Below, one piece after another: positions 1 to 36,637 of a stretch of DNA of 64,000 nucleotides. Position numbers and translations under genes: made by a program. The DNA comes from Candidatus Woesebacteria bacterium GW2011_GWC1_42_9. GTDB taxonomy: Bacteria > Patescibacteriota > Microgenomatia > UBA8517. The notes below the pieces were generated by a model. That model ran no database searches. It was not told where the DNA came from and saw only the letters and a list, made by a program, of their open reading frames with translations. Numbering within the stretch: the first letter of the stretch is position 1; each line of letters opens with the position of its first letter. The DNA is taken from NCBI GenBank assembly GCA_000995185.1, contig LCET01000004.1, forward strand, positions 2,630 to 66,629. The letters run 5' to 3'.

Positions 1-210
1 GGTACCTTTCTACACCTTAATATTTACTATTAAATAGAAAAACTTGGGGTGTAAATAGTCCCGCAAAGCGGGACTGGGTTCTCCCATTTGGAAATCGTCG
101 GATCAAAGCTTTGTGGCAGCTCCCCGGCGCTTATCGCAGCCTTACGCGTCCTTCATCAGCAACTTATGCCTAGGCATCCACTGTTTGCATTAAGTAGACT
201 TTCGGCATTT
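1..210 (-). rRNA. rrl: 23S rRNA, 5' end (partial; continues beyond window start)
   Basis: Reverse complement reads ...GTGGATGCCTAGGCATAAGTTGCTGATGAAGGACGCGTAAGGCTGCGATAAGCGCCGGGGAGCTGCC...AAGCTTTGATCC...AATGGGAGAACCC, matching the universally conserved 5' domain of 23S rRNA. Confidence 0.75.
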
Positions 211-240
211 CTCTTCAGATGTCAAAGTACAATCCGAGAG

Positions 241-315
241 TGGACCCGAGGGGATTCGAACCCCTGACCCCTACATTGCAAATGTAGTGCTCTAAGCCAA
301 CTGAGCTACGGGCCC
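241..315 (-). tRNA. tRNA-Ala (anticodon UGC)
   Basis: RC gives GGGCCCGTAGCTCAGTTGGCTTAGAGCACTACATTTGCAATGTAGGGGTCAGGGGTTCGAATCCCCTCGGGTCCA; cloverleaf with 7-nt loop TTTGCAA and the G3:U70 Ala identity pair; no CCA encoded. Confidence 0.85.
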
Positions 316-502: not shown

Positions 503-576
503 GGGCTTGTAGCTCAGTTGGCTAGAGCGCCAAACTGATAATTTGGAGGTCCCAGGTTCGAGTCCTGGCAAGCCCA
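503..576 (+). tRNA. tRNA-Ile (anticodon GAU)
   Basis: GGGCTTGTAGCTCAGTTGGCTAGAGCGCCAAACTGATAATTTGGAGGTCCCAGGTTCGAGTCCTGGCAAGCCCA; anticodon loop CTGATAA; canonical T-loop TTCGAGT; opposite strand to the flanking rRNA genes. Confidence 0.85.
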
Positions 577-578
577 CT
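559..578 (+). repeat. Direct repeat copy 0 (T-arm/acceptor 3' end of tRNA-Ile itself): CGAGTCCTGGCAAGCCCACT
   Basis: Same 20-21 nt string recurs at 628-647 and (1-nt deletion) 928-946. Confidence 0.8.
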
Positions 579-627
579 CGCTCTGCTCACAGACTTTCCA
601 GTTCTCGATATCGCTCCTTTGGATCGT

Positions 628-647
628 CGAGTCCTGGCAAGCCCACT
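628..647 (+). repeat. Direct repeat copy 1 of tRNA-Ile 3' end (att-like)
   Basis: tCGAGTCCTGGCAAGCCCACT identical over 21 nt to 558-578. Confidence 0.8.
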
Positions 648-684
648 TGATTTTCAAATCTCAGTTGGATAAATTGATAGTACA

Positions 685-915
685 ATGTCGCTCACCCAAA
701 AAGACTTTGATGAAATCGAACAAGTAGTTGAAAAGGTTGTTAATAAAAAAACAAGCAATCTCCCCACAAAAGATGAGTTTTTTGGTTCTATGGACAAACT
801 AGTGACAGAAATTAAAGCGTCTCGTGAAGAGCAGACCATATTGTCTCACAGAGTCTCTGATCATGAAGATCGGATTGAAAAGATCGAGAATAAGCTTCAG
901 ATACCCTCAAATTAA
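685..915 (+). CDS. Hypothetical 76-aa charged/coiled-coil protein, lying between tRNA-end repeat copies 1 and 2
   Basis: ORF MSLTQKDFDEIEQVVEKVV...; heptad-like K/E-rich sequence; no recognisable family. Confidence 0.4.
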   Translation: MSLTQKDFDEIEQVVEKVVNKKTSNLPTKDEFFGSMDKLVTEIKASREEQTILSHRVSDHEDRIEKIENKLQIPSN

Positions 916-927
916 TTTAGATAAAGC

Positions 928-946
928 CGAGTCTGGCAAGCCCACT
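928..946 (+). repeat. Direct repeat copy 2 of tRNA-Ile 3' end (att-like, one C deleted)
   Basis: CGAGTC-TGGCAAGCCCACT; 19/20 match to tRNA 3' end. Confidence 0.75.
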
Positions 947-1074
947 AATAAATTACTATCTACCCCATAATATTGACTTTTTGGGAACCGATTATTATCT
1001 CGAGTTCCGAGTCCAGCGCGCAGACGACGGGCACTATGAATGTGTCCCAACTGAATAGCGCTGATTAACATCAA

Positions 1075-1105
1075 AGGGTGAACCCTAAAGTTCACCCTTT
1101 TTTTG
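1075..1105 (+). terminator. Rho-independent terminator (AGGGTGAACCCTAAAGTTCACCCT + T7)
   Basis: Perfect 9-bp stem, 6-nt loop, T-run 1099-1105. Confidence 0.7.
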
Positions 1106-1113
1106 TGTATAAT
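1105..1113 (+). promoter_or_regulatory. TG-TATAAT -10 element directly after the T-run; ATG at 1121 is 7 nt downstream (possible leaderless start)
   Basis: gtgTATAAT at 1105-1113; same 'T-run + (G)GTATAAT' architecture recurs elsewhere in window. Confidence 0.5.
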
Positions 1114-1120
1114 AAGCTTA

Positions 1121-3361
1121 ATGCAGAGCCTTGTGACACTTTTTTTGAAAATTCCCAGAGAAACTGAGGTCACTCCGGAGGCCGCCCAAACTTTCCTGGC
1201 AAGCCTCACCCAAATCAATTCTGTTACAAGTTTCCAAAAATTAAGAGGGTTTAGACCACAAGTGCTATCGCTTGAAATTGCCTCCATTAATTCGCAAATT
1301 ATCTTTTTAATTACTTGCGACAAAGAATTGGTCCCGTTTGTGGAGGCCCAAATCCAGTCAAACTATCCGCTCGTCATCATCGAGCGCATCGAGGATCCTT
1401 TGGGGGAACATAAACTCAGCGTCAAAGAACTAACTCTAAGGAGAGGTAACTATTTCCCAATTAACACTTATCCTTTGTTTCAAGATGTTGATCCCTTGTC
1501 TTCAATACTAACTGTCCTAGCAAAGCTAAAAGTCAATGAGTTTGCCATGGTCCAGTACTCTCTTGAATCAATAAGCGGCTCTTGGCAGGGAGGAGGCCAG
1601 CGCTATGCAGAAACCGGCGGGGGAAAAACAGAAGAAGGGGTTTATATTGCCCATCCCGAAGCCGCGATCATCAAAGAAAAAATATCTTTTCCCGGGTTTG
1701 CGGTATCACTAAGATTAATCGGTTCATCCCAAATTACCCTTAACGCCCTTGCCAGTAGCTTTGGGGTATTTGCAAAATCGGACGGAAATTCCCTAGTCTC
1801 CCGCTCAAAAGGAGTATTCGGGCGAAGGTCGCTTATTAATGATGCCCGCAATCGAAGAGTTACCGACAGGCAAATCCTAAATATTTCCGAAATCGCAACC
1901 ATTTGGCATTTGCCAAGCGAGAAAGTAAAAATCCCCTCCATAGTGTGGGGCACTTCAGTCCTTTCCGAAGCCCCTGAAAACTTACCCGTTTCACAAGATA
2001 AAACCGACGAAGAAAAACAAAATATAAATTTTTTTGCCAAAGCTCCTTATAAAAACAAGGAGACGACTTTTGGTGTTTCCTCAAAAGACAGGAGAAGGCA
2101 TATGTGGGTCGTCGGGAAGACCGGCACCGGCAAATCTACCCTTATTGCCAACATGGCCATTGATGACATTAAAAAGGGGCAGGGGATTGCGGTCATTGAT
2201 CCGCATGGTGATCTTTGCGAAACTATTTTGGACTATATCCCAAGCCACAGGATTAATGATGTTGTTTACTTCAATCCCTTTGATCGCGACCATCCGATTG
2301 TCATTAACCCTCTTGAAGTGACAAGTAAAGAAGAGGCGGAGCTCGTGGTCTCGGGCCTCATGAGTATTTTCACGAAAATTTGGGCAAACGTGTGGTCTGC
2401 CCGGATGGAATATATTCTCCGAAATACCCTCCTTACTCTTTCGCAAGTACCGGAGACAACTTTTGCTGATGTCCTTACAATCCTAACGGATAGAAAATAC
2501 AGGGACCGCATCTGTGAAACAATCGATGATCACTCTCTCAAACAATTTTGGATCACAGAATATAATCAAATGCCGGATAGACTTCAAAAAGAGTCTATTT
2601 CACCGATACAAAACAAGGTCGGGCAGTTTGTGACTTCCCCATTAATCAGAAAAGTGATCGGCTCTCCCAAAAGCACTATTCACTTAGATGAAGTAATGGA
2701 CGAGGGCAAAATTCTCCTCGCAAATCTTTCCCAAGGGAAAATTGGCGAAGATAATTCAGCTTTGCTTGGAGCGACTTTGATAACCAAATTACAGCAAGGA
2801 GCGATGCAAAGAGTAAATATCGATGAAGAAAAACGCCGAGATTTTTACCTCTACGTTGACGAGTTCCAAAATTTTGCCACCACAAGCTTTATCAAAATCC
2901 TTTCAGAAGCCCGAAAATACAGGCTTAATTTGATGCTTGCCAATCAGTACATGGCCCAGATCCCGGAGGATGTCCAAAAGGCGATACTCGGGAATGTGGG
3001 GAGCTTGATCTCATTTGGAGTCGGAGCGGAGGATGCTGAAGTAATTCACAAAGAATTTTCAGAAGTGTTTTCGCAAAATGATTTAGTTAATCTTTCAAAC
3101 TTTCAAGTTGCTGTAAAGCTCATGGTTGAGGGGCATGCTTCGAGGCCGTTTTTGGCACATACTCTGCCTGAGCCAGCAAGTAAAAACCAAAATAGAGAGA
3201 CGGTAATTCAAGTTAGCCGAGAGCGCTGGAGCCAAAAGCCGGGGACAGATATCAAAAGCCATGGTCAAAAATATATTGAGCGCCGCGAAGCCGCTCAAGC
3301 CCGCTCCCGAGAACAACAACAGCCCCAACAAAGACAATATCGCCCTCAACATAGAAATTAG
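1121..3361 (+). CDS. Type IV coupling-protein-like ATPase (VirD4/TraG/TraD family; TraG-D_C-like C-terminal domain), paralog 1
   Basis: Walker A VVGKTGTGKST; DPHGD; Walker B/TraG-D_C block RRDFYLYVDEFQNFATTSF...ILSEARKYRLNLMLANQY...GNVGSLISFGVG. Six-frame track begins at TTG 1103, which overlaps the promoter; ATG 1121 preferred. Confidence 0.75.
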   Translation: MQSLVTLFLKIPRETEVTPEAAQTFLASLTQINSVTSFQKLRGFRPQVLSLEIASINSQIIFLITCDKELVPFVEAQIQSNYPLVIIERIEDPLGEHKLSVKELTLRRGNYFPINTYPLFQDVDPLSSILTVLAKLKVNEFAMVQYSLESISGSWQGGGQRYAETGGGKTEEGVYIAHPEAAIIKEKISFPGFAVSLRLIGSSQITLNALASSFGVFAKSDGNSLVSRSKGVFGRRSLINDARNRRVTDRQILNISEIATIWHLPSEKVKIPSIVWGTSVLSEAPENLPVSQDKTDEEKQNINFFAKAPYKNKETTFGVSSKDRRRHMWVVGKTGTGKSTLIANMAIDDIKKGQGIAVIDPHGDLCETILDYIPSHRINDVVYFNPFDRDHPIVINPLEVTSKEEAELVVSGLMSIFTKIWANVWSARMEYILRNTLLTLSQVPETTFADVLTILTDRKYRDRICETIDDHSLKQFWITEYNQMPDRLQKESISPIQNKVGQFVTSPLIRKVIGSPKSTIHLDEVMDEGKILLANLSQGKIGEDNSALLGATLITKLQQGAMQRVNIDEEKRRDFYLYVDEFQNFATTSFIKILSEARKYRLNLMLANQYMAQIPEDVQKAILGNVGSLISFGVGAEDAEVIHKEFSEVFSQNDLVNLSNFQVAVKLMVEGHASRPFLAHTLPEPASKNQNRETVIQVSRERWSQKPGTDIKSHGQKYIERREAAQARSREQQQPQQRQYRPQHRN

Positions 3362-3911: not shown

Positions 3912-4028
3912 GTGGGGGAAAATCCCTCAACACCTAAATATATGACTAGAAGCGGATCCGGTTTAGTAACCCCAAACCGCGAACTTAAAGGGGGGTGTTT
4001 TTGTCCGTCATTCGGACCTTACTCCTTA

Positions 4029-5519
<1,491 letters not shown>

Positions 5520-32738: not shown

Positions 32739-32807
32739 TGCGGGGTAGTGTAGGGTGCACGGGAGGCTCATAATCTCCCAGACTAGGTCCGACTCCTAGC
32801 CCCGCAA
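32739..32807 (+). tRNA. tRNA-like gene with CAU anticodon, noncanonical T-loop (TCCGACT) and short D-loop; identity uncertain (initiator/Met/Ile2) or pseudo-tRNA
   Basis: TGCGGGGTAGTGTAGGGTGCACGGGAGGCTCATAATCTCCCAGACTAGGTCCGACTCCTAGCCCCGCAA folds into cloverleaf with 7-bp acceptor (U1:A72). Confidence 0.4.
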
Positions 32808-32812
32808 CATAT

Positions 32813-32885
32813 GGCAGGGTAGCTCAGTAGGTAGAGCACAGGATTCATAAACCTGCGGTCGTGGGTTCGATTCCCACCCCTGCTA
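32813..32885 (+). tRNA. tRNA-Met (anticodon CAU)
   Basis: GGCAGGGTAGCTCAGTAGGTAGAGCACAGGATTCATAAACCTGCGGTCGTGGGTTCGATTCCCACCCCTGCTA. Confidence 0.7.
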
Positions 32886-33263
32886 CTAAAATAACTTGAG
32901 CCACTTTTGCCAATTCTGAAGAGGAATTTCGTTTTCTAATTCACGCTCAATCCTCGGAGATAGCTTTCGAAGTGTTTCACTGTCGGGCAGGACAACGACA
33001 ATTTCCCCCTCCTTCGCGAGACCCAACTTATCGCGCGCTTGCTTTTCGATATAATCCTCGCTTCTCACAAACTTAATTTGGTCGGCCAAATCCCGATTTT
33101 TTTTATCTAATTCTTCCAAAGCAGAATAAGCATCATCAATCGCCCGATTTATCCGATATAATCGCATGACATTTCGAGCCAGCGAAAGCGATAAAACAAG
33201 TAATATTGCCGCCACAAGATACCGAATTAACCTATGTTTTGGCAATTTATCTTTGATACCCAT
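32886..33263 (-). CDS. FtsB/DivIC-like septum formation initiator
   Basis: N-terminal TM, coiled coil, EDYIEKQARDKLGLAKEGE. Confidence 0.6.
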   Translation of the reverse strand: MGIKDKLPKHRLIRYLVAAILLVLSLSLARNVMRLYRINRAIDDAYSALEELDKKNRDLADQIKFVRSEDYIEKQARDKLGLAKEGEIVVVLPDSETLRKLSPRIERELENEIPLQNWQKWLKLF

Positions 33264-33301
33264 AATGTTGACGTCTATAAATCCTGTGATATCATATAGT
33301 T

Positions 33302-34165
33302 ATGTCGAATGAACCACTTAAGACTTTATTGCCTAAGTTTATCAAAAATTTAGAGGAGGCAGGAAGATCACCTTCAACCATCCTCGCCTACCGCTCCGAT
33401 TTGGTGCAATTGATTGACTACCTGGAAAAATTCAGCAAGGTAACCACTGATCAAGTCAAATCGCAAGATCTCGAGGGCTTCCGTGACTATTTACTAAGTC
33501 AGAAATATACCCCAAAGTCTGTATCTAGAAAACTAAATGCTATTAAGACCTTTTTTAGATGGTTGGTAACCAATAGTCTTATAGTCAAGGATGTTTCGCG
33601 TGATGTAGAACATCCTAGAATAGAGGCAACTTTGCCAAAGTTTTTGACCCAACTTGAATATCGCGCTTTAAGGGACGCAGTCCGAGCTGATCAGCGCATT
33701 GCCACGATTGTAGAATTAATCTTACAAACCGGCATGAGGATCTCAGAAATTGCGAATCTCAAAGCAAAAAATGTTCTTCAAAAGGAAATTATCATCGAAG
33801 CTTTCGCCACCCAGCCAGAAAGAAAAATCCACCTTAACGCAACTGCCAAAAAATCAGTCGATGACTATCTGAAAATCCGTCCGGAAACAGGGGAAGAATT
33901 TTTGTTTGTCAGCAAAAACGGGAAGCAACTGGCAGTAAGAAATATCAGGGCAGCGATAGACCGCCATATGCAAAGAGCCGGAGTTCCAAATTACTCTGTA
34001 AATGATCTTCGAACTACTTTTATAGTTGAGAACTTGAAACGAGGAGTGGATTTGGTAGTTATCTCAAAAATGGCCGGCCACAAGCGCCTCTCAACGACAG
34101 AGCGCTACCTTCAGTTGGCCGAAATCTCCGAGCACGGCGGCAAACAGTTAATAGAAGAACTGTAA
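33302..34165 (+). CDS. Tyrosine recombinase (XerC/XerD-like phage-integrase family)
   Basis: Core-binding AYRSDLVQLIDYL; catalytic R (GMRISE), LR box, AGHKRLSTTERY (H..Y). Confidence 0.8.
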   Translation: MSNEPLKTLLPKFIKNLEEAGRSPSTILAYRSDLVQLIDYLEKFSKVTTDQVKSQDLEGFRDYLLSQKYTPKSVSRKLNAIKTFFRWLVTNSLIVKDVSRDVEHPRIEATLPKFLTQLEYRALRDAVRADQRIATIVELILQTGMRISEIANLKAKNVLQKEIIIEAFATQPERKIHLNATAKKSVDDYLKIRPETGEEFLFVSKNGKQLAVRNIRAAIDRHMQRAGVPNYSVNDLRTTFIVENLKRGVDLVVISKMAGHKRLSTTERYLQLAEISEHGGKQLIEEL

Positions 34166-34171
34166 CTCTAG

Positions 34172-34244
34172 TGGGCCGGGAAGGATTCGAACCTTCGACT
34201 TCCAACTTATAAGATTGGCACTCTAACCGCTGAGTTACCGGCCC
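34172..34244 (-). tRNA. tRNA with anticodon UAU (tRNA-Ile(UAU)-like)
   Basis: RC: GGGCCGGTAACTCAGCGGTTAGAGTGCCAATCTTATAAGTTGGAAGTCGAAGGTTCGAATCCTTCCCGGCCCA; anticodon stem CCAAT/GTTGG, loop CTTATAA. Confidence 0.6.
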
Positions 34245-34321
34245 AAGATAATCCCTATTATACCAATATTACTTCTTTTCTTGTGGTGGAGATCCTTTTC
34301 TTTCATTCTGGGGCAATCCTA

Positions 34322-36637
34322 CTATAGCTTCGCGCGTCTGGCAATTTCAGATTCCACGAGCCGTAGGTCCCGCCCATATCGCAGCCTACTCATCTCCCGG
34401 ATGATCCCGGCAATTTTTGGATTTGATCCAGAAATAATCTTTTCAAGATCCATTGTAAGATCAACTGAAAAAGGAGGAACTGGCTCATTGTTCACAATTG
34501 TCTTCATATAAACATGGAAGCGCTCAATATTTAATAAATCATCCTCTTCAAAGCTTGGAACAAACTCGTGGGCTAGATAATTGGCATCCGATACTCCTAC
34601 GCGGTATGAAATCAGTGTCCCCACATTCCCAAAAATCGCATTTTTAATATCTTCATCAATCTGCCCTACAAACTGATTTGCCACTGTCAAGTTTAAGCGG
34701 TATTTCCTTGCTTCAGAGAGAATCTGAGCAAAATCGGGAGTGGCAAAATTTTGAAACTCATCAACGTAAAGATAAAAATCCCGGCGTTTTTCTTCAGGTA
34801 TATCGGACCTGCTCATCGCCGCCATTAAAATTCTTGGGACAAGTATTAATCCCAAGAAATTGGAATTCTCTTCTCCTAGTTCCCCTTTTGCAAGATTTAC
34901 TAAAAGTATTTTCCCTTGATCCATAATTTCCCGAAAATCAAACGACGATTTAGATTGACCGATAATATTTCTGACCATCTTATTGGTAACGAACCTCCCA
35001 AATTTACTGGTGATATAGTCCAAGGTTTCTGATTTGTGGAACTCAGACGTCTGGGCAATTTGATCAGTCCAATAACGCCTGACAATGGGGTCCTGAACTT
35101 TGGGGAGTATTTCACGGACATACTCGGGATCAGTCAAAATCCTCATTACCTCTATAAACGTACTTCCCTCTTCGCTCATGGCCGTAAGCATCGCATTCCT
35201 CACGGCATGCTCAAATCTCGGACCAACTATTCCAGTCTTGTAAGGATCAAAAAGCTTGTACATTAAATTAATAATCGATGTCGTCACGAAGTGCTTTTGG
35301 TCCTCGGTCTGTGCTTCTAAAAGATTTAATCCCATCGGCCTCTCGCTATCACCCGGCCTAAAGTAAATCACATCTTCGCTTCTCTCAGAAGGAATGTAAT
35401 TTAAAATATCCTCAACTGCATCTCCATGAGGATCTATAAAGCACACTCCCCGCCCAGCATTTATATCCTGCCTGATCATGGATTTTAAAAATTCAGTCTT
35501 CCCGGTGCCAGTTTTCCCAATAATATACATATGGCGCTGGCGGTCGCTCTCCGCCATAAATACCGGCCTTCTTACCCCGCGAAAACTACTCACCCCAACA
35601 TAGAGTCCTTCAGTTGGTATTTGTGCGGGCGCTGGCGCACGCTTGGCATGAATCCAATCAATATGGGGAGTGGTAATCGCCTTGTTTGGAAAATGAAAAA
35701 TAGAAGCTAATTCCTCGGAATTTAAAATTGATCGCCGGTTACTACCTAAATGCATTGCAGGCTGATAACGGTAAATAAAATCTTCGACAAAACTTGCTTT
35801 TCTTCTAACTTTTCTCGTGCCAAGCTGATTATGTTCCCCATTAAATTGGGACATTGTTCCCAATATATTTGAAAGGTGCGCTTTAGCCGATTCGCTGTTT
35901 CCCGAAACAACAACAACCCGAATGGAAGTTTCAAATCCAGGCTTTGAAGATTTATTCTCAATCGCTTCAAGGGTTTTTGCGCTTGTTGAAAATTTGGCAC
36001 TTTCAGGGTCAGCTTCCTGTTTTTTGGTGCTGCTGACAAATCCCTTGCCTGCTTTTTGCCACTTACCTTCTGCCGGGGAAATTAATATTTGGACCGCGGC
36101 CGCCTCCCCTTTCCCCATCTTTGCCATGGCACTAGTAAGGGAAGATAGGGGATCAGTGGGCAAATCTTTATAAGTAGTCAGGGGGTAATGATTTTCTTTC
36201 TTTAGTTGTAGGGCGGAGTACGCCACAGACCCCTCCTCTCCAAAAATTTCATACTCCGGGACTTCAAGAATCTCGGCATCTTGATATGCTCCATGGATCT
36301 GCTTTTCGATCATGTCCCGATATTCATTAAATGTCCAGACATAAAACTTTATATCCTCCAGCCTGGCAACAATCTCAAAAGAAATCACCGGCTGAGTGGA
36401 GAAACGCATCTTAAACCCGCCTTTTTTAATGGAATAGAGGGAGGCAATAATCTGCTCCATCGCATCGATCTTCACTTCATTGCTCCGAGATACCTTTACC
36501 AAAAGAAGTGAAGAATTAAGTGACCTTCCTTCTCTGTCATGCAGACGAATTTGACTGATGATATACCAAGCGATTCCAGCTGCAAATATCACGAGAGCTC
36601 CAGTAACGATTAGGGCAATAAACAGTGTCGTTAGCAT
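34322..36637 (-). CDS. Type IV coupling-protein-like ATPase (VirD4/TraG/TraD family), paralog 2, N-terminal TM helix
   Basis: IIGKTGTGKTEF, DPHGD, EEKRRDFYLYVDEFQNFATPDF, ILSEARKYRLNL (blocks identical to paralog 1). Confidence 0.75.
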   Translation of the reverse strand: MLTTLFIALIVTGALVIFAAGIAWYIISQIRLHDREGRSLNSSLLLVKVSRSNEVKIDAMEQIIASLYSIKKGGFKMRFSTQPVISFEIVARLEDIKFYVWTFNEYRDMIEKQIHGAYQDAEILEVPEYEIFGEEGSVAYSALQLKKENHYPLTTYKDLPTDPLSSLTSAMAKMGKGEAAAVQILISPAEGKWQKAGKGFVSSTKKQEADPESAKFSTSAKTLEAIENKSSKPGFETSIRVVVVSGNSESAKAHLSNILGTMSQFNGEHNQLGTRKVRRKASFVEDFIYRYQPAMHLGSNRRSILNSEELASIFHFPNKAITTPHIDWIHAKRAPAPAQIPTEGLYVGVSSFRGVRRPVFMAESDRQRHMYIIGKTGTGKTEFLKSMIRQDINAGRGVCFIDPHGDAVEDILNYIPSERSEDVIYFRPGDSERPMGLNLLEAQTEDQKHFVTTSIINLMYKLFDPYKTGIVGPRFEHAVRNAMLTAMSEEGSTFIEVMRILTDPEYVREILPKVQDPIVRRYWTDQIAQTSEFHKSETLDYITSKFGRFVTNKMVRNIIGQSKSSFDFREIMDQGKILLVNLAKGELGEENSNFLGLILVPRILMAAMSRSDIPEEKRRDFYLYVDEFQNFATPDFAQILSEARKYRLNLTVANQFVGQIDEDIKNAIFGNVGTLISYRVGVSDANYLAHEFVPSFEEDDLLNIERFHVYMKTIVNNEPVPPFSVDLTMDLEKIISGSNPKIAGIIREMSRLRYGRDLRLVESEIARRAKL

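Follow-up and report, generated by a model that had tools for sequence, protein, structure and literature searches.

The 64,000-nucleotide stretch of DNA analysed here, called the window, is part of contig LCET01000004.1 of Candidatus Woesebacteria bacterium GW2011_GWC1_42_9, a member of the Patescibacteria or candidate phyla radiation (CPR). The genome is that of a groundwater bacterium. Near the left edge of the window, an intact tRNA-Ile gene with the anticodon GAU is followed by two further copies of its own 3' end, and a single small gene lies between the second and third copies of this repeat. The array precedes a gene for a TraD/VirD4-like ATPase and consists of the following features (ORF, open reading frame).

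503-577, plus strand: tRNA-Ile(GAT) (ARAGORN; Rfam 75.8 bits, with the Rfam end at 576)
558-578, plus strand: repeat copy 1, TCGAGTCCTGGCAAGCCCACT, from T-loop base 2 to 2 nucleotides (nt) beyond the discriminator
579-626, plus strand: spacer 1 (unit 1), 48 bp, no ORF
627-647, plus strand: repeat copy 2, an exact match to copy 1 (21 of 21 positions)
647-675, plus strand: promoter-like TTGATT-17 nt-TAAATT before the 76-aa gene, recognized by reading the sequence and not listed by a consensus scan
685-915, plus strand: 76-aa gene for a predicted two-helix coiled-coil protein with the conserved motif LSHRVSDHEDRIEKIE
928-946, plus strand: repeat copy 3, lacking one C of TCGAGTCCTGGCAAGCCCACT
947-1099, plus strand: strain-variable segment, ending in a terminator-like hairpin at 1073-1100 (blastn, terminator scan)

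All copies of the repeat start inside the 7-nt T-loop and end 2 nt past the discriminator. In the tRNA-Ile gene, which is the intact target and itself holds copy 1, the T-loop TTCGAGT occupies 557-563, the 3' strand of the T-stem 564-568, and the 3' strand of the acceptor stem with the discriminator, A576, 569-576; the repeat block adds two trailer bases after the discriminator. In copy 2 the identity sets in with the second T-loop base and in copy 3 with the third, and the DNA beside each copy bears no relation, on either side, to the DNA beside the other copies. The 13-mer core TGGCAAGCCCACT occurs three times in 64 kb, compared with 0.05 occurrences expected, and none of 100 shuffled sequences reached three. 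The units measure 69 and 299 bp and contain no recombinase or transfer gene, the 76-aa gene being the sole ORF between the repeats. The initial annotation of this DNA had correctly read the exact repeat at 627-647, the copy with one deletion at 928-946, and the ORF at 685-915, but it placed the ORF-bearing unit between copies 1 and 2, which are only 48 bp apart; the 280-bp unit (648-927) in fact sits between copies 2 and 3. It was also right that copy 3 lies upstream of the promoter of the downstream gene, although the distance to the -10 box at 1108-1113 is about 162 bp and not 169.

Spacer 1 and the first 11 bases of copy 2 together (598-637) make up an imperfect 40-nt palindrome (CCAG..CTCGA...TCGAG..CTGG) with a predicted DNA fold of -12 kcal/mol (z -3.2), and none of 200 shuffles was equally stable. 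Copy 3 does not fold, so that the only hairpin in the array comes from copy 2 and spacer 1; copies 2 and 3 have no T-arm partner, and the repeat array has no match in Rfam. A possible fourth copy at 1194-1209 (12 nt exact, or 16 nt with one insertion or deletion), inside the ATPase coding region, was judged coincidental because it encodes FLASLTQ, which is kept in the protein of relatives with other codons, and because a sister strain (locus L007) has a substitution there.

The array is highly reproducible. The exact 76-aa protein, and likewise the exact 143-aa protein encoded by the ORF that comes after the ATPase gene, are found on more than 20 contigs (JGI, ENA, NCBI, and Logan), and the 13 loci of the window strain that could be read in assemblies from JGI, ENA, and NCBI agree at every one of the 620 bases that lead from the first base of tRNA-Ile up to the ATPase gene. 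Such identity among independent assemblies means that the array is not an assembly artefact, a possibility that the initial annotation had allowed for and that can practically be dismissed: no point in its support was found, the 13 loci differ in sample, assembler, and data centre, the same array recurs in a sister strain that has substitutions of its own, and the 21-nt repeat is far below the assembly k-mers (k127 and k141 in the record names) and much shorter than the reads.

That sister strain, represented by loci L007 and L009, matches the window at 98.4% identity over 240-945 and once more from position 1100 on (pairwise blastn), with copy 3 intact in both loci. The homology of L007 stops at the last base of copy 3, after which L007 has 764 bp unrelated to the 154 bp found in the window, the sole likeness between the two segments being a 41-nt terminator-like stretch. 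The variable segment of L007 carries a 160-aa orphan ORF that has no homologue among 5.8 billion proteins and is unrelated to the 160-aa ORF of a more distant locus, L112. Recombination at a repeat would be expected to leave a breakpoint just at the edge of that repeat, as is seen here. The sister strain also differs from the window between the 23S rRNA 5' end and tRNA-Ala, where L007 (1963-2025) and L009 (166-228) have about 60 extra bases, CCTACGCCAAGGCTACGGATTGCAGGCAAAAACTTGCCCGCCGGCCGAAGTTTCAACGTAGGC, relative to window positions 233-240; this segment has inverted-repeat character.

At the junction between tRNA-Ile and the ATPase gene, relatives compare with the window as follows.

L025/L026: gap of 21 bp, single tRNA 3' end
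L027/L028: gap of 33 bp, single tRNA 3' end
L114/L115: gap of 26 bp, single tRNA 3' end
L112/L113: insert of 679 bp, lacking any repeat of the tRNA end and carrying a membrane ORF (160 aa, unrelated)
L029/L030: tRNA-Ile separated by a GIY-YIG gene from a pseudo-tRNA that is partial and diverged
L111: tRNA-Ile reversed, with an ORF of 109 aa between it and the ATPase gene
Window: 543 bp (578-1120), three repeat copies

The three empty junctions, which belong to distant relatives (68-69% amino-acid identity in the ATPase), show that the 543 bp at 578-1120 are a lineage-specific insertion. These comparisons mark the tRNA-Ile/ATPase junction as a hot spot in general; only the window species has the repeat scar. 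In L111 (positions 1-46; 71% ATPase identity), where tRNA-Ile(GAT) is reversed relative to the ATPase gene and the 109-aa ORF between them is an orphan, the tRNA gene must have been inverted at least once within the clade. In some relatives (L029, 1-366; L027, 7625-7967) small GIY-YIG genes of 89-92 aa adjoin tRNA-Ile on its 5' side, and in L029 a decayed partial tRNA overlaps the GIY-YIG stop codon with its 5' end. An 89-aa GIY-YIG gene also lies inside the 23S rRNA gene of L002 (8609-8878), L004 (1962-2231), and L007 (about 1080-1320) and is absent from L001 and L003; by its distribution it is a presence/absence polymorphism of a homing-endonuclease-type insert, situated just beyond the window edge.

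The array is set in a split rRNA operon, the remaining features of which are listed here.

1-204, minus strand: 5' end of the 23S rRNA gene, cut by the window edge (Rfam LSU_rRNA_bacteria, 100 bits)
240-315, minus strand: tRNA-Ala(TGC), oriented as the rRNA genes (ARAGORN, Rfam)
1108-1113, plus strand: -10 box of the ATPase gene, TGTGTATAAT
1121-3361, plus strand: TraD/VirD4-like ATPase, 746 aa, ATG at 1121 (Pfam TrwB_AAD_bind, DUF87, and TraG-D_C)
4030-5519, minus strand: 16S rRNA gene (Rfam SSU_rRNA_bacteria, 1349.8 bits)

From the 16S 3' end to tRNA-Ala the distance is 3.7 kb, and 3.45 kb of plus-strand protein-coding DNA lie between the tRNA-Ile 3' end and the 16S gene. The tRNA-Ile gene is on the strand opposite to the rRNA operon, and its position and orientation are the same in four relatives. 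The order 23S (minus), tRNA-Ala (minus), tRNA-Ile (plus), ATPase (plus) is kept in L025, L027, and L114, with the downstream minus-strand 16S gene found in L025 and L027, and L112 shows the tRNA-Ile (plus), ATPase (plus) part of it. This conserved order indicates that the inverted tRNA-Ile and the protein genes between 16S and 23S are ancestral and unconnected with the repeats, and its conservation in L025, L027, and L114 suggests that in this clade the 16S and 23S rRNAs are probably transcribed separately. The ATPase itself has 7,542 homologues at E<1e-30 across the Patescibacteria, typically 60-70% identical. By this conservation it is a core gene and the ancestral neighbour of tRNA-Ile, lying outside the insert, and is no marker or remnant of an integrative and conjugative element (ICE). 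Its description as a coupling protein had been offered in the initial annotation as evidence of a conjugative element, which its abundance in the Patescibacteria and its conserved place after tRNA-Ile do not bear out. Of the suggestion that relatives might carry a single tRNA-Ile without repeats, followed by unrelated sequence, the first part applies to L025, L027, and L114, yet the downstream gene in them is the same. A TATAAT box stands only 6-7 nt before the ATPase ATG, with no Shine-Dalgarno sequence, in the window (1100-1123), in L025 (7980-8003), and in L114 (5975-6003), which suggests that the ATPase mRNA is leaderless, beginning immediately behind the tRNA. The region 32739-36637 contains a second TraD/VirD4-like paralogue (34322-36637, minus strand) beside tRNA-Ile(TAT) (34171-34244, minus strand), an Xer-like gene, and two tRNA-Met genes, so that both tRNA-Ile genes of the window have a TraD-like ATPase gene as a neighbour.

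The cargo of the array is the 76-aa gene, which shows five synonymous and no non-synonymous changes relative to the L007 allele and, on the evidence of its conservation, is a real gene under purifying selection. Its product has 22 homologues at 41-73% identity, with seven invariant columns and an invariant SDHEDRI-type motif, and relatives are encoded at 150 or more loci in JGI metagenomes. The AlphaFold2 model (predicted local distance difference test score, pLDDT, 88) consists of helices at residues 5-23 and 29-70, and the protein had no match in Pfam, NCBIfam, PHROGs, or PDB sequences or in a Foldseek comparison with PDB. The GC content of the unit is 0.35, versus 0.42 for the window. The last base of copy 2 is the first T of the putative -35 hexamer, and the homologues have a similar TTAAATA(N4-9)ATG upstream.

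Recombinases were sought among the window ORFs of at least 120 aa by a scan against Pfam. The only one recognized lies 32 kb from the array:

33302-34165, plus strand: Xer-like tyrosine recombinase (Pfam Phage_integrase and SAM_1; NCBIfam XerC, XerA, and XerD matches below the equivalog cut-offs)

Its product is a candidate trans-acting enzyme only. It falls far below the IntI cut-offs, and the window contains no integron integrase; the search for a cognate integrase, proposed with the initial annotation, brought up in the window only this distant Xer-like gene. Nor did the search for additional copies of the repeat that had been proposed with that annotation lead to a second locus: in genomes of the Genome Taxonomy Database (GTDB) the 20-mer gave six single matches, three of which are the ordinary single tRNA-Ile genes of other Patescibacteria (L019, L021, and L022) and three of which fall in unrelated taxa, and scans of IMG/VR with the 20-mer and a 17-mer gave only chance matches in high-GC coding DNA. 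The insert and the 76-aa ORF had no match in phage or plasmid collections, and no larger element related to the array units was found. An ordinary attachment-site (att)-type duplication was seen at another locus to which the 20-mer led, L023 (about 2819-2906; uncultured Gammaproteobacteria), where the 16-nt 3' end of an unrelated tRNA-Leu(TAA) is repeated 111 nt downstream.

The reading we find most probable, and hold with moderate confidence only, is that at least two site-specific insertions, one after the other and with crossover in the T-loop, gave rise to the array, a scar in which recombinase-less remnants of them are now left. Each incoming DNA would have brought its own tRNA segment, from the T-loop to the 3' end, as the att core, and recombination in the T-loop would have left the tRNA intact while displacing the previous 3' end downstream. 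The expected product has the order tRNA-Ile, 48 bp, att, 76-aa gene unit, att, variable segment, and ancestral ATPase gene. The units may later have shrunk to 69 and 299 bp in a small genome that kept one selected cargo gene and no recombinase, which would make them equivalent to very small remnants like cis-mobilizable elements (CIMEs). The making of the junctions by a recombinase (tyrosine or serine type), the sequence in which the events took place, and the later decay are all points that we infer from the arrangement. Site-specific recombination in the T-loop is favoured by the sharp, tRNA-registered boundaries of the copies, their unrelated flanks, the empty sites in relatives, and the breakpoint between strains at copy 3.

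Several observations weigh against this scenario. Units of 69 and 299 bp are far below the size of any autonomous element, and it is implausible that a double-stranded circle of 69 bp could serve as substrate for recombination. No repeat follows the variable segment, so that the simple model needs an extra deletion or replacement. No integrase gene was found in or beside the array, and no donor bearing an attP site in viral, genome, phage, or plasmid collections. Among the more than 20 contigs of the window species there is no presence/absence polymorphism of the units and no contig that lacks one, and the searches brought up no excised form. None of the other seven tRNA genes of the window and none of the other tRNAs of the fetched CPR loci has a duplicated 3' end. 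The insert of L112, which is without repeats, shows that insertion at this junction does not always leave such a scar. The proposal of repeated integration and excision at a tRNA attB, made in the initial annotation, therefore keeps the support of att-core-like repeats, empty sites, and the breakpoint at copy 3, and is short of an integrase, a donor, and polymorphism.

Each feature of the array has counterparts in known systems. Sublocation classes of the islands and prophages that target tRNA genes by means of tyrosine integrases, T-loop crossover included, are reportedly described by Williams in Nucleic Acids Research (2002). As in islands and prophages with T-loop crossover, the block of identity in the window runs from the T-loop to the tRNA 3' end and the tRNA is reconstituted; unlike them, the array has no integrase beside the tRNA, no plausible autonomous size, and no attP donor. 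With integron cassettes and clusters of attC sites lacking integron integrases (CALINs) it shares single-gene units of a few hundred base pairs, in one orientation, between short recombination sites, but the repeat of the window is a tRNA 3' end and not an attC hairpin, IntI and attI are missing, and the ORF has its own promoter-like sequence. Integrative mobile elements exploiting Xer (IMEX) and pdif modules borrow the host Xer recombinase. They too are small recombinase-less modules between repeated sites, and an Xer-like gene is the only recombinase gene in the window; the repeat is, however, no dif-like 28-nt site, and nothing ties Xer to it.

The ssrA islands of Dehalococcoides are bounded by 20-bp direct repeats of the 3' end of the tmRNA gene (McMurdie et al. 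2011, PMC3146451). They are kilobase islands, 16 of them with a serine recombinase module beside attL, and some units without integration genes have been read as cis-mobilizable or as fixed remnants (PMC3146451). There, as here, an essential RNA gene present in one copy has behind it several direct repeats of its 3' end, each about 20 nt long, suggestive of insertion in the T-loop. The present array differs in its 69- and 299-bp units, in having no linked recombinase, and in its target, a tRNA gene in the split rRNA operon of a CPR bacterium. In CIMEs and their accretion, as with the ICESt1-related elements of Streptococcus thermophilus, integration, decay, and new integration produce tandem structures (PMC5704250). 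The array resembles these in that attL/attR-like repeats bound units without integration or transfer genes, although its sizes are one to two orders of magnitude smaller; assignment to the CIME class would call for descent from an ICE or an integrative and mobilizable element (IME) and for demonstrated cis-mobilization. We regard the locus as a well-documented instance of a known phenomenon, with no new mechanism.

Relatives of the 76-aa gene occur in other settings, which bear on how the array may have arisen. A general link between the family and tRNA ends was rejected, as a tRNA lies within 200 bp of the gene at no more than 3 of the 80 homologue loci. Near-identical family ORFs (92-100%) stand in differing flanks in L049, L053, L055, L057, L066, and L070. 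L055 and L057 form a pair of filled and empty intergenic sites without a flanking repeat, L055 carrying an intact copy at the site that is empty in L057; about 800 bp away, L057 has a family copy (4001-4219) with an in-frame stop (GAA to TAA) in the HEDRI motif. In L098, L046, and L047 the family gene is located between unrelated direct repeats of 20, 27, and 35 nt, which shuffled sequences almost never equal in score. In about 19 soil contigs it is associated with an imperfect hairpin repeat of about 57 nt, AAATAGCACTTGATGGGCGTGCC(N10-12)GGCACGCCAGTCAAGTTC, and in several of these the repeats form same-orientation arrays that separate single-gene units. L048 (243-2010) and L072 (155-2700) have four hairpin copies each, 440-1070 bp apart (z -6.5 to -7.1), and further loci with the repeat are L079, L082, L085, L088, L094, L100, L102, and L104. 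The right-hand box of the soil arrays, GTCAAGT, agrees with GTTRRRY at six of seven positions. In their layout and repeats the soil arrays resemble attC/CALIN arrays; no IntI gene was seen in these short contigs, and IS4/5 transposases are nearby. Unit sizes around the family gene are alike across contexts (299, 349, and about 370-460 bp), and the family is absent from IMG/VR at the protein level and from phage and plasmid collections.

These settings lend some plausibility to the idea that the units of the window are functional mini-cassettes, with the block from the T-loop to the tRNA 3' end serving as a reusable site for a recombinase that acts in trans, either the Xer-like protein or one encoded elsewhere. 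Promoter-bearing single-gene cassettes would then be stacked upstream of the ATPase gene in the manner of integrons or pdif modules. We consider this unlikely, but it draws strength from a family that changes contexts and sits in attC-like hairpin arrays: the gene behaves as mobile cargo, with hairpin arrays in L048 and L072 and some hairpin copies at about 15 further loci, 20-35-nt direct repeats around it in three loci, nearly identical ORFs in different flanks, and units of similar size. The significant imperfect hairpin formed by spacer 1 and copy 2 and the slot after copy 3, which differs between two strains that are 98% identical, point the same way. Arguing against it are the lack of a recombinase linked to the array and of an integron integrase at the hairpin-array loci, the rarity of tRNA genes beside the homologues, the filled and empty pair L055 and L057 with no flanking repeat, and the fact that in the window species excision polymorphism was not seen; the exact cassette is known from this locus only, and copy 3 is decaying, which speaks against a maintained site. 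It seems similarly doubtful that the 76-aa gene is one of a class of gene-sized mobile cassettes that is widespread among Patescibacteria and soil bacteria and moves between attC-like arrays, tRNA ends, and other intergenic sites, often with 20-35-nt repeats. An improbable alternative of another kind is that the duplications arose as side effects of illegitimate recombination, or of the repair of double-strand breaks, at a tRNA gene that is fragile and often attacked, with filler DNA between duplicated target ends, the likely trigger being cleavage by small GIY-YIG homing endonucleases such as those near tRNA-Ile in relatives. A GIY-YIG gene abuts tRNA-Ile in L027 and lies between tRNA-Ile and a partial pseudo-tRNA in L029, one is polymorphic in the 23S gene of the population, nearly all relatives show rearrangement at the junction between tRNA-Ala and the ATPase gene, the inverted tRNA-Ile of L111 included, and an ATP-dependent DNA ligase is encoded in the window. 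GIY-YIG enzymes, however, leave 2-nt overhangs and not 21-nt staggers, and three copies with nearly the same boundaries are hard to obtain from untemplated repair. The duplication in L029, which covers most of the tRNA and has diverged, follows a different pattern, and no GIY-YIG gene is present at this tRNA in the window.

Two further explanations seem to us very improbable. The copies might be what is left of tandem tRNA-Ile genes, or of a local tandem duplication, in which all but the 3' ends have decayed. Loose alignment hinted at an older tRNA remnant at 983-1030 (15 of 500 shuffles were as good) and at a T-arm remnant in spacer 1, where the motif CCAGTTC occurs, but both candidates were dropped, since stricter scoring left no significant resemblance between the tRNA and the spacers or flanks, and cmscan detected no partial tRNA in 579-1125. 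Neutral decay, moreover, would not give identity at 21 of 21 positions beside wholly unrelated sequence, and the sequences after the three copies are mutually unrelated. Alternatively, the repeats could be functional RNA or DNA signals (processing, termination, or regulatory) for the expression of the tRNA or the ATPase gene, as might be suggested by the hairpin at 598-637 just downstream of the tRNA and by the location of the repeats on the transcribed strand, between the tRNA and a gene whose 5' leader is very short or missing. Relatives do without the repeats, however, copy 3 has lost a base in one strain and carries a substitution in the other, and the absence of a T-arm partner for copies 2 and 3, of folding in copy 3, and of an Rfam match for the array is hard to reconcile with such a role.

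The ultra-small genomes of the CPR or Patescibacteria have been little explored for mobile elements and the scars that these leave. The locus described here points to the single tRNA-Ile gene in the split rRNA operon as an insertion hot spot in Woesebacteria, and it suggests that streamlined genomes, too, retain att-like scars together with a selected small cargo gene. Should the cassettes instead prove to be mobilized in trans, they would constitute a very small natural gene-capture system and would offer a handle on a widespread, uncharacterized family of proteins of 76-90 residues.

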